From Robiginitomaculum sp. (GTDB taxonomy: Bacteria > Pseudomonadota > Alphaproteobacteria > Caulobacterales > Maricaulaceae): a DNA stretch of 64,000 nt. This document shows, piece by piece, positions 18,040-20,880 of this stretch (positions are counted from its first letter, which is position 1; each line of letters begins with the position of its first letter). The stretch covers positions 16,506 through 80,505 of the forward strand of contig NVWK01000012.1 of assembly GCA_002733605.1 (NCBI GenBank), written 5' to 3'. Made by a program: the position numbers and the translations under genes. Below the pieces are notes generated by a model. That model saw only the letters and a list, made by a program, of their open reading frames with translations. It did no database searches and was not told the DNA's origin.

Positions 18040-19926
18040 CTACTCTCCCGCTTCCACAACAGCTTCGTCCAAGTAAATTTGCCCCCCCATTTCCTTGAAC
18101 TTATCACTCATCCCTGCCATGCCTTCTTCGGCAACGGCTTCGAGGCTGGCTTTTTCGTTGTCGCTGAGGGTGTCTGCGTAATCCCTTACATCCTGTGTGA
18201 TTTTCATGGAGCAGAATTTGGGGCCGCACATAGAGCAGAAATGGGCGACTTTATGGGCTTCTTTGGGCATGGTCTGGTCGTGATAATCTTTGGCGGTTTC
18301 GGGATCGAGGCTGATATTGAACTGATCTTCCCAACGGAATTCGAAACGGGCGCGGGACAAGGCATCATCCCTGAGCTGCGCCGCCGGATGCCCTTTGGCC
18401 AAATCGGCGGCGTGGGCCGCGAGTTTATAGGTAATAACGCCGACTTTTACGTCGTCGCGATCCGGCAGGCCCAAATGCTCTTTGGGGGTAACGTAGCATA
18501 ACATGCTTGTACCAAACCAGCCGATCATGGCCGCGCCGATGCCGCTGGTGATATGGTCATAACCGGGGGCGATGTCCGTGGTGAGCGGGCCGAGGGTGTA
18601 GAACGGGGCTTCGCCACAGGTTTTGAGCTGCTTGTCCATGTTGGCCTTGATCTTGTGCATGGGTACATGGCCGGGGCCTTCGACCATCACCTGACAGCCT
18701 TTGCGCCATGCGATCTGGGTCAACTCGCCGAGGGTTTCCAATTCGGCAAATTGGGCGCGGTCATTGGCATCGGCAATCGAACCGGGGCGCAAACCATCGC
18801 CGAGCGAAAACGACACATCGTAGGTGCGCATAATATCGCAAATATCTTCGAAATGGGTGTAGAGGAAGCTCTCTTTATGATGGCTGAGACACCATTTCGC
18901 CATGATAGAACCACCGCGCGAAACAATGCCCGTGACCCGGTGCGCGGTCAGATGAATATAGGCAAGGCGAACACCGGCATGGATGGTGAAATAGTCCACG
19001 CCCTGCTCTGCCTGTTCGATCAATGTGTCGCGAAAGATTTCCCATGTCAGGTCTTCGGCCACGCCGTTTACTTTTTCGAGGGCTTGGTAAATCGGCACGG
19101 TGCCGATCGGTACGGACGCGTTGCGGATGATCCATTCGCGGGTGTTGTGGATGTTGCGGCCCGTGGATAAATCCATCACATTGTCAGCACCCCAACGGGT
19201 CGCCCACACCATTTTATCGACCTCTTCCTCGACCGAACTGGCGACGGCCGAGTTGCCGATATTGGCATTTATTTTCACAAGAAAGTTGCGGCCAATGATT
19301 TGTGGTTCGACTTCGGGATGGTTGATATTGGCCGGAATAATCGCCCGTCCGCGCGCGATTTCAGAACGGACAAATTCGGGTGTAACAAAGGCGGGAATGT
19401 CTGCGCCAAAACTTTCGCCCGCGTCGACGCGGGCTTGCGCGCCGGGCACAGCTTGTTGGCGCCCAAGGTTTTCACGCTCGGCGACATAGATCATTTCCTT
19501 GGTAATTATACCCGCATTTGCGTACTCATATTGCGTGTTTTTTGATTCCGGAAGTCCGCGTAACGGTTTGTTTTTTATGGGGAATTCTCGTGCCAAATGG
19601 CGGCCTTTGGCGCCGCCATTGTCTTCGAGTGTCATTTCGCGTCCCTCATACTCTTCGAAGCCGCCGCGCTCTAATATCCAAGCCGTGCGCGGGCGCGGCA
19701 AACCTTTCTCAACGTCGATTTCTACATCCTGATCAGAGTATGGGCCGGACGTATCATACACCTGTACGTCCGGTTCATTGGCACTTGGATGCAAGGCAAT
19801 GGCACGGTGTGGCACAGACAAATCGGGGGCGTCAACAGGGTGGGTATAGACTTTGCGCGAGGCGGGTAATGGGCCCGTTGTTACCGTTGGTGTTTTGAAT
19901 GCAGATTGGTCAATTGGTTTATTCAT
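18040..19926 (-). CDS. thiC: phosphomethylpyrimidine synthase ThiC
   Basis: Full-length ThiC pattern ([15 protein letters not shown]..., TREWIIRN..., [10 protein letters not shown], and the C-terminal Fe-S motif [11 protein letters not shown]). ATG at 19926 (MNKPID...). The track start at 19944 is a TTG. Confidence 0.97.
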
Positions 19927-20785
19927 CAGGTTGGTCTTTCGCAAGTTTTGGAGCAGGTGTTATTGTGCGGCTCTCGCCGATTTTAGAGAAATAATCGTGT
20001 GGGCCATTTGTCAATCCAGCGGGCACTTTTATCGGCACATGAATGCCGGTCGCGGTTTTGGCGTTGATGCGGGTGGTCAGAATTGTGTTGCCTTCTTCGC
20101 TGTCAAAGAACCAATAGGGCGGAAATGCATGGTCTGTGACGCGGGCTTTCCAATGGCTGTCATGGGGTTTGTAGTGGCTGTCATTTACATCGGCATCGCC
20201 CATATGCATGACCGTTGTGCCCTCACCCAATGTGACCCTGAAAACCAGATTTTGCACATCGGCACGGGACGGCCAACCGGCATGGGGAATACGGACGGCT
20301 TCGGCAGTTATATCGCCAATGGTTATCGTTTTTGCTGTATCGCCATATTCAAGGGCGAAGGCCTGTACGCGTTTGAAAATTGCATTGTCCGGCGTAGTTT
20401 CTTCGCGCAACATCTCTACCCCTTGTGCAGAGATAAACAGATGCACGTCCCTGTGGGCGCGCATATAGGCAATCGTGTCGGGGGCTGAAAAATGATCGGG
20501 ATGTACGTGGCTGACGAAAATCGCGTCAATACCGTCAAAGGGGGGCGTGCCTGCCATGATTGCAGTTTTCATATCATCCGGGACTTCTTGGTAGGTGCCA
20601 AAACCGGACGGGAAAAACGGGTCGAACAGGACTTTCGTATCCCCTTGCGCCACCAATATGGCTTCATTGGCTAGATAGGTGGTATCTGCGTGGGTTTCAT
20701 GGGCGGAGGCAGGTATTGCTGTGTGCCCTAATCCCATTCCTGATCCAAAAACGGCAAACGCCGCACATATGAGTATTTTTTGCAT
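19919..20785 (-). CDS. secreted MBL-fold metallo-hydrolase
   Basis: Signal peptide [28 protein letters not shown], HxHxDH motif ([10 protein letters not shown]) and later His/Asp ligand positions. Its stop overlaps the thiC start (ATGAATAA). Confidence 0.8.
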
Positions 20786-20789
20786 ATTT

Positions 20790-20880
20790 AACGCCCGTCC
20801 TTACGCTGGTCTAATCCAGATCAAGTTATAAGGGTGCGTCTCAATCCCGCATACTGCGGGATGCCCCTCGGATGGATGGC
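20790..20880 (-). promoter_or_regulatory. TPP (THI-box) riboswitch
   Basis: The reverse strand reads GAGGGGCAUCCCGCAGUAUGCGGGAUUGAGACGCACCCUUAUAACUUGAUCUGGAUUAGACCAGCGUAAGGACGGG. It contains the conserved GGGG..., UGAGA, ACCCUU, UGAUCUGGAU.A..CCAGCGUA.GGA elements. Its 3' side lies within about 10 nt of the MBL-gene ATG. Confidence 0.85.

Follow-up and report, generated by a model that had tools for sequence, protein, structure and literature searches.

Organization of the locus

We analysed a stretch of 64,000 nucleotides from Robiginitomaculum sp. (assembly GCA_002733605.1, contig NVWK01000012.1, positions 16,506 to 80,505 of the forward strand), referred to below as the window. On its minus strand, a thiamine pyrophosphate (TPP) riboswitch precedes a gene for a predicted exported hydrolase of the metallo-β-lactamase (MBL) fold, here called mbl, which is followed by thiC. 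The elements of this unit, in window coordinates and in the direction of transcription, are the following.

20880..20908, minus strand: sigma-70-like promoter, read from the sequence, with TTGTAG at 20903-20908, a 17-nt spacer and CATAAG at 20880-20885; ends just 5′ of the aptamer
20781..20878, minus strand: TPP riboswitch aptamer (THI element), Rfam RF00059, with its conserved core at 20795-20869; the variable P3a hairpin is absent
20798..20802, minus strand: Shine-Dalgarno (SD)-like AAGGA, 12 nt upstream of the mbl ATG; in the Rfam structure line, AAG belongs to the 3′ strand of lower P4 and GA is J4/1
19919..20785, minus strand: mbl, 288 aa, first cistron; MBL-fold binuclear-metal hydrolase, predicted exported, Pfam PF12706 and PF13483
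20702..20785, minus strand: Sec-type signal peptide, residues 1-28 of the MBL protein, with predicted cleavage between ASA and HE (from the sequence pattern and the family alignment)
20492..20509, minus strand: HxHxDH metal-binding motif (H93 V H95 P D97 H98), invariant in family alignments
19919..19926, minus strand: ATGAATAA, the 8-nt overlap of the thiC start (ATG 19926-19924) with the mbl stop (TAA 19921-19919)
18040..19926, minus strand: thiC (phosphomethylpyrimidine synthase), 628 aa, second cistron; Pfam ThiC_Rad_SAM and ThiC-associated domain, NCBIfam PRK09284

The original prediction, made from the sequence of the window, had placed a THI-box on the minus strand and named 20780-20900 as the interval to be searched with the Rfam TPP model. 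The THI-box is borne out by a full-length match to RF00059 at 20781-20878 of that strand (model positions 1-105 of 105), which scores 62.1 bits where the gathering score is 54.3 and has E = 9e-10. This is the only TPP hit in the 64-kb window. Both UUGAGA and ACUUGAUCUGGAUUAGACCAGCGUAAGGA of the THI-box core are found together with helices P1, P2 and P4/P5, and the variable P3a hairpin is the sole part of the model without a counterpart. Judged by its sequence, it is a typical RF00059 RNA. Minimum free energy folding of the leader was uninformative (z = -0.35).

The aptamer had been described as lying directly upstream of the MBL gene and not of thiC, and the mbl ATG is indeed located 9 nt after the aptamer 3′ CGG. 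The identity of the second cistron is given by its scores with PRK09284 (1027.6 bits) and ThiC_Rad_SAM (610.5 bits). The mbl stop had likewise been said to overlap the thiC start, and the 8-nt sequence ATGAATAA was found at the expected position.

The MBL-fold protein

The MBL protein matches Lactamase_B_2 (PF12706) with 47.6 bits for a cut-off of 27 and Lactamase_B_3 (PF13483) with 45.5 bits for a cut-off of 24. Residues H93, H95, D97, H98, H168, D197 and H249 are invariant across 27-34 homologues in two alignments, so that both the fold and the HxHxDH motif of the original prediction hold. The signal peptide that it had also proposed agrees with a heuristic reading of the N-terminus: an MQK n-region and a 17-residue hydrophobic core are followed by HTAIPASA and, after the predicted A-x-A cleavage site, by HET. 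The layout of A-x-A followed by His is seen family-wide in the alignment, with a lipobox instead in one member (P0104), and the first mature residue, His29, is nearly invariant. The GC content across mbl (0.52-0.55) is like that of the neighbouring genes and thus gives no sign of recent acquisition.

A database search with the MBL protein returned 1068 homologues. The best 120 of these are 47-91% identical and 255-309 aa long, except for the 501-aa P0040, and those with names come from Robiginitomaculum, Henriciella and metagenome-assembled genomes of Maricaulaceae and Hyphomonadaceae. By this sampling of sequences, the family occurs in marine alphaproteobacteria, namely Hyphomonadaceae, Maricaulaceae and Robiginitomaculum-like bacteria. 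P0040 (locus L071, 5001-6506) was considered as a fusion of a NAGPA-type protein with an MBL and rejected: its contig has 2x long-read coverage, with frameshifts that break up thiC and Acyl_transf_3, and the fusion is probably an assembly artefact that reflects adjacency only.

The AlphaFold2 model of the MBL protein has a pLDDT of 91.4 and a pTM of 0.86, with low values only at residues 1-30 and in the C-terminal tail. Compared with the PDB using Foldseek, it gave 63 matches at E <= 0.001, and the 50 listed are all MBL-fold proteins. NAPE-PLD, UlaG and YhfI lead, the top folds having TM-scores of 0.62 to 4qn9, 0.58 to 2wyl and 0.53 to 6kns. Other matches include FrsH/CmlA, Igni18, cAMP-bound and Apyc1 phosphodiesterases and RNase Z/J, and identities range overall from 12 to 19%. 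The best PDB match by sequence is again NAPE-PLD (E = 9e-7), over about 100 N-terminal residues.

The NCBIfam equivalog models scored far below their cut-offs with the MBL protein, which is an ordinary member of the superfamily lying outside every characterised subfamily. Characterised members of the Lactamase_B_2/3 type mostly cleave phosphodiesters or lactones. From its sequence, the MBL protein is probably an active binuclear-metal hydrolase of this kind, predicted to be exported. In the structural model it stands nearest to the phosphodiesterase- and lactonase-type MBL enzymes, at a similarity too low for transferring a specific substrate.

Related loci

The survey comprised 75 loci, obtained from a metagenome scan with the family alignment and from look-ups of exact proteins; a scan of a genome collection with the single protein gave one locus. 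The thiC-linked set consists of 13 non-redundant loci, the window included. This sample leans to long contigs and to one alphaproteobacterial group. A TPP aptamer (RS in the list below) is present on the thiC strand in all 13, in the following arrangements.

RS-MBL-thiC: the window; L002 (Robiginitomaculum, 63% identity); L023 (42% identity)
RS-MBL-HisPhos1-thiC: L070
RS-MBL-NAGPA-YjbR-DUF3800-HisPhos1-thiC: L071
RS-YjbR-(small membrane ORF)-MBL-thiC: L005, L068
RS-192aa-YjbR-80aa-MBL-thiC: L069
RS-HisPhos1-MBL-thiC: L029 (40% identity)
MBL-RS-NAGPA-thiC: L074
MBL-RS-small ORFs-CesT-like-Dioxygenase_C-thiC: L072
MBL-AcylT3-187aa-RS-80aa ORF-thiC: L012
MBL...3.7 kb...RS-thiC: L067

The MBL gene is thus inside the riboswitch unit at 9 of the 13 loci, as the first cistron at 5, and just outside it at 4. 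The nine in-unit loci have several gene orders, and MBL identity among them goes down to 40-42%. In a rough neighbour-joining tree, the thiC-linked MBL proteins are paraphyletic, with unlinked clades nested among them, a topology that suggests an old linkage to thiC, lost several times.

Six aptamers that fell below the Rfam gathering score or were missed (L005, L068, L069, L071, L012 and L029, with long P3 or P5 insertions) were recovered in E-value mode, by eye and with a clade-specific THI-box pattern. Insertions of 40-110 nt in the P3 region are found in the aptamers at L029 3210-3378, L005 4018-4167 and L012 6601-6785, with the THI-box core intact. The pattern has 16 matches in the 511 kb made up of the window and the loci, every one of them upstream of thiC and on its strand, and none in 5 shuffles. 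Compensatory changes between loci are seen in P5 and in lower P4. P5 covaries freely (CUGG/CCAG, CCCG/CGGG, CCGG/CCGG, CCCC/GGGG), and lower P4 is either CUUG/.AAG or, in L023 and L067, CCUG/.AGG.

The promoter is conserved along with the aptamer. In the window, the 38 nt between the stop codon of the upstream YjbR-family gene and the aptamer contain TTGTAG-N17-CATAAG, and the same element, cTTGnnn-N17-CATAnn, stands at an equal distance from the aptamer in 13 of the 13 thiC-linked loci. This fixed distance indicates that the unit has its own promoter and that its transcript starts at about P1. A generic promoter scanner did not call the CATAAG promoter, since it accepts only -10 hexamers that end in T.

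The junction with thiC recurs in the same way. The 8-nt overlap ATGAATAA joins thiC to the preceding open reading frame (ORF) in seven loci whose upstream genes differ (the window, L002, L005, L068, L029, L012 and L070), and an overlap of 4 nt is found in L069. In L012, the ORF that overlaps the thiC start encodes an 80-aa membrane peptide. The first 17 nt of the L005 MBL gene (5001-5017), ATGAATAAACCAATTGA (MNKPI...), are identical to the thiC start of the window (19910-19926), and the thiC start of L005 itself is nearly identical to this sequence. The shared start may be the trace of a gene insertion at the start of thiC.

Small ORFs of the riboswitch-thiC interval gave no usable Pfam match. 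They include membrane proteins of 90 and 113 aa (L005 4555-4827 and L072 7523-7864), which are homologous to each other and share a ...Y-R-S-x-G-D-G-R-x-I-x-x-V-L-D-D... motif. The membrane proteins of 192 aa (L069) and 187 aa (L012) from the same neighbourhood also resemble each other. Both pairs could be candidate transporter-like partners.

A proposed compact translational switch

In the Rfam structure line, the GA of J4/1 directly abuts P1, so that AAGGA lies within the aptamer. In 11 of the 13 loci, the first start codon is preceded at 5-13 nt by AAGGA or AGGAA (the latter in L023 and L067), a position from which this tract would obviously serve as the ribosome-binding site. The first start codon follows the aptamer 3′ CGG by 2-10 nt, again in 11 of the 13 loci. 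A conventional expression platform of 43-95 nt is present only in L002 and L067, with an SD-sequestering hairpin in that of L002. The sequences suggest that the switch acts on translation and has no expression platform apart from the aptamer.

Transcription would begin from the dedicated promoter at the 5′ edge of the compact aptamer. With TPP bound, the folded aptamer would hide the ribosome-binding region of mbl and crowd its start codon, no further platform being required. Expression of thiC would fall along with that of mbl by loss of translational coupling, as expected from a thiC start codon inside the mbl stop and from the weak SD of thiC in the window. In most loci AAGGA stands 7-9 nt before the thiC ATG, and its counterpart in the window is degraded to GAAAGAC; coupling therefore probably matters more in the window. 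The long first cistron, once untranslated, would be exposed to Rho, with probable polarity on thiC.

The riboswitch, mbl in first place and the overlap with thiC point to one unit under predicted TPP control, and in this structural respect the original prediction is upheld. TPP-repressed co-expression of mbl with thiC is well supported by the sequence features, and we regard the regulatory architecture as a whole as highly probable.

Control could also be exerted mainly by intrinsic transcription termination instead of translation, a hairpin and U-run in the early codons of mbl being the terminator of an expression platform. A scanner does find such a site at 20751-20764 of the minus strand (GCGGC-GUUU-GCCGU UUUUGG), in codons 8-12 and 20-35 nt past the mbl ATG. 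However, its stem has 5 pairs only, it lies in coding sequence, and it has no counterpart at that position in L002 or in the remaining loci. The region contains 6 terminator-like sites where 4.9 are expected by chance, and the feature that is conserved is the start codon abutting the aptamer. The hairpin is probably a chance occurrence, and termination as the mode of control is very improbable. Still less credit can be given to a resistance-type class B β-lactamase lying next to thiC by chance. The predicted export of the protein would suit such an enzyme, and Pfam Lactamase_B (PF00753) passes marginally over residues 42-101 (24.3 bits, cut-off 22.7), but the NCBIfam model bla_class_B_core (NF012229) reaches 16.7 bits against a cut-off of 100, and among Pfam families Lactamase_B_2 and Lactamase_B_3 fit best. 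No natural class B β-lactamase is among the 50 Foldseek matches listed, the sole such entry being an engineered Cronobacter mutant at rank 28 with a TM-score of 0.39. The failure of the class-B core model and the other MBL types matched by Foldseek led us to reject this identity, which is almost certainly wrong.

Possible thiamine salvage or a passenger of the thiC neighbourhood

The explanation that we favour combines the compact translational switch with a periplasmic (phospho)ester hydrolase recruited to the TPP regulon. Exported and made only at low TPP, the MBL protein would cleave external esters to yield thiamine, or a precursor, that the cell can use. Its partners in sister lineages would be an exported His_Phos_1 phosphatase and a NAGPA-type protein. 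Two observations speak for salvage, besides the yeast precedent and the OarX study discussed below. Several rearrangements have left the MBL gene in the riboswitch unit, even at identities as low as 40%, and the other recurrent residents, His_Phos_1 (a phosphatase family) and NAGPA, are also predicted to be exported. Both are hosted by the riboswitch-thiC interval, both have N-terminal signals of Tat-like, lipoprotein or Sec type, and one lineage for each has it in first place. We give this explanation, taken whole, an even chance. The salvage role by itself, in its simplest form the cleavage of thiamine phosphate esters or a related ester from outside the cell, is a serious candidate that we place a little short of even. 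The undescribed periplasmic, thiamine-related step of the original prediction is a reasonable hypothesis in view of the co-resident His_Phos_1 and of the precedent of PHO3 and PMU3 discussed below; the linkage on which it draws is mixed.

Several results weigh against this explanation. In L012, L067, L072 and L074, promoter and riboswitch stand downstream of the MBL gene, and thiC and the TPP element are absent from at least 8 more family loci within flanks of 3-5 kb, where a farther thiC could be missed. These are L001, L004, L013, L014, L016, L025, L027 and L028, with at least about 3 kb on each side and MBL identities of 42-55%. The neighbours of these eight unlinked genes vary (prolyl oligopeptidase, NAGPA, CHASE-GGDEF, OmpA, an NrtR-like regulator, a TPP-dependent enzyme, imelysin). 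The riboswitch-thiC interval also holds genes with no plausible thiamine role, namely YjbR, DUF3800, a CesT-like protein, Dioxygenase_C and small membrane proteins. Moreover, a syntenic block of methyltransferase, BD-FAE esterase, FAD oxidoreductase, Rce1-like, TetR, NAGPA, Acyl_transf_3, YjbR and His_Phos_1 genes extends across genomes, so that the adjacency of MBL and thiC is partly inherited. In Pfam and NCBIfam scans, which returned generic MBL families only, the MBL protein gave no match to known salvage and transport families of the TPP regulon (TenA, YlmB, ThiY, ThiBPQ, PnuT, ThiT, OarX and others). On the side of the switch, the 12 nt between AAGGA and ATG in the window are at the long end for an SD, and the AAGGA that thiC has of its own in most loci means that coupling need not be obligatory. 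A literature search found no paper tying an MBL-fold protein to the TPP regulon, nor one on thiamine riboswitches of Hyphomonadaceae. The support consists of sequence and predicted structure.

In the unlinked locus L027, the MBL gene is preceded on its own strand, at a distance of 30 nt, by a gene for a TPP-dependent enzyme (2133-3899; Pfam TPP_enzyme_N, _M and _C), a single case that may be a coincidence.

The same survey can be read as neighbourhood hitchhiking, which we consider nearly as likely as periplasmic thiamine salvage. The MBL protein would then be an exported envelope or phosphoester-scavenging enzyme without a thiamine role, its repression by TPP a tolerated side effect. Local rearrangements would repeatedly have set genes of the block between a mobile promoter-riboswitch cassette and thiC, and translation of mbl would serve at most as a leader cistron for thiC. 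This would account for a first cistron that varies over the 13 loci (MBL, YjbR, His_Phos_1, NAGPA, a 192-aa membrane protein, small ORFs or thiC itself), for the presence of DUF3800, the CesT-like protein and Dioxygenase_C in the interval, and for the synteny of the thiC-adjoining block within the clade. In Henriciella, NAGPA and MBL genes are adjacent without thiC, and in L012 the 80-aa ORF takes the coupled position with the same ATGAATAA overlap. The original prediction had proposed a survey of whether MBL orthologues recur behind TPP riboswitches or next to thiC. They do so in a unit with thiC at 9 of 13 loci; at 4 of 13 they are outside the unit and at no fewer than 8 further loci unlinked, and every locus belongs to a single alphaproteobacterial group in which synteny is shared. 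Hitchhiking does not readily explain why linkage and inclusion in the unit hold to 40% identity despite the shuffling. In addition, the MBL, His_Phos_1 and NAGPA-type proteins are three hydrolases with export signals, two of them phosphoester-related, and look more like a module than like random neighbours. Finally, each first start codon is set precisely 2-10 nt after the aptamer, which points to selection on the aptamer-start junctions.

Surroundings of the unit in the window

Upstream of the unit, the window contains the following genes.

20917-21291, same strand: YjbR-family gene
21285-22874, same strand: FAD/amine-oxidase-type oxidoreductase
24348-25493, farther upstream: two-domain methyltransferase homologue

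Homologues of NAGPA, His_Phos_1, BD-FAE and Acyl_transf_3 were not found in the window. A search of sequencing runs returned the DNA of the window in DNA metagenome runs only and in no RNA runs.

The 3′ end of thiC is duplicated. A 62-nt direct repeat of 76% identity is formed by 17454-17515 and 18047-18108, and tblastn detects a remnant of ThiC residues 606-627 at 17453-17518. The repeats flank a 593-bp segment of low GC content (0.35-0.41), the insert extending over about 17516-18046, with a 168-aa ORF at 17511-18017 that has no Pfam match. The arrangement resembles the insertion of a small element into the thiC 3′ end, with the end of the gene brought along or regenerated. Between the 168-aa ORF and a GIY-YIG gene, two copies of a palindromic GGATACCC(N8)GGGTATGAGCGG-like motif are found on the minus strand at about 17100-17135 and 17400-17435, and beside them a short 15-nt tandem repeat at 17284-17325; these intergenic sequences look like repeats of the repetitive extragenic palindrome (REP) type. 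Elsewhere in the window, a 6S/SsrS RNA (RF00013) lies at 56315-56471 of the minus strand, with 50.5 bits against a gathering score of 46.4.

Significance

The thiamine biosynthetic route is considered complete, and the open questions concern salvage and the exchange of thiamine-related compounds at sea. Vitamin B1 and its precursors are scarce in the sea and shape microbial communities. As no paper on either was found, two features of these loci appear to be undescribed: a predicted exported MBL-fold hydrolase as the first cistron of a thiC operon under predicted TPP control, and a clade-wide compact cassette of promoter, aptamer and start codon placed before at least six different first genes.

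A broader proposal, which we advance only tentatively and consider rather unlikely in its entirety, is that marine stalked alphaproteobacteria (Hyphomonadaceae, Maricaulaceae) possess a TPP-repressed periplasmic salvage module governed by a platform-less switch with its ribosome-binding site inside the aptamer, thiC being reached only via a translated leader cistron. If so, the MBL protein, with the His_Phos_1 and NAGPA-type proteins in sister lineages, would make external thiamine phosphates, or other esters that contain thiamine or pyrimidine, importable, as a bacterial counterpart of PHO3 and PMU3. A hydrolase exported at low TPP would be a new entry point into the marine thiamine economy and an enzyme family to assay. 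The TPP switch, with promoter, aptamer and start codon in about 130 nt, could be of use in studies of riboswitch re-wiring and as a small regulatory part. If hitchhiking is the correct explanation, the locus is a warning against deducing a related function from first place behind a riboswitch alone.

Comparison with known systems

Within its superfamily, the MBL protein resembles NAPE-PLD, UlaG and YhfI in its alpha-beta/beta-alpha fold and in the ligand set formed by HxHxDH, H, D and H. Identity to these enzymes is just 14-19%. They are cytoplasmic or membrane-associated, whereas the protein of the window has a signal peptide and a conserved N-terminal His in its mature form.

A functional precedent for the proposed salvage is found in yeasts, where the thiamine-repressible secreted phosphatases ScPHO3, CgPMU3 and SpPHO4 hydrolyse external TPP for thiamine uptake (PMC6027888). 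These enzymes and the MBL protein would all be extracytoplasmic hydrolases at work under thiamine limitation, a likeness of logic and not of homology: the yeast phosphatases are eukaryotic, transcriptionally regulated and of a fold other than MBL. The PMU family is phosphoglycerate-mutase-like, i.e. of the His_Phos_1 type. A phosphatase of this His_Phos_1 type, predicted to be exported, is present in the riboswitch operons of L029, L070 and L071, and the operon of the window has no His_Phos_1 gene. The reasoning from position has been applied before, in a study of OarX and FmnO which stated that a gene of unknown function with a link to thiamine serves salvage or detoxification more probably than biosynthesis (PMC11223231). 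Salvage was assigned there by the same comparative-genomic argument, from position behind TPP riboswitches. However, OarX is a cytoplasmic short-chain dehydrogenase/reductase found behind riboswitches in three phyla, whereas the MBL family belongs to one alphaproteobacterial group and its linkage is not universal.

The E. coli thiC and thiM riboswitches are reported to exert translational control that is tied to Rho termination (PMC5499598, PMC5234074). The switch of the window shares with them the aptamer family RF00059, thiC as a target, and a predicted block of translation initiation with the polarity expected downstream. Unlike them, it has no separate platform, its SD-like AAGGA lies in P4 and J4/1, and 9 nt separate P1 from the start codon. 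Its first cistron is no thiamine gene, and thiC is reached through overlapping stop and start codons. In SAM-II, SAM-III/SMK box and preQ1-II riboswitches, the SD is located within the aptamer, and folding of the aptamer around its ligand sequesters the ribosome-binding site. The TPP element of the window belongs to a different aptamer class, and we infer a comparable occlusion of its SD from the position of AAGGA and from the pairing of AAG in P4.

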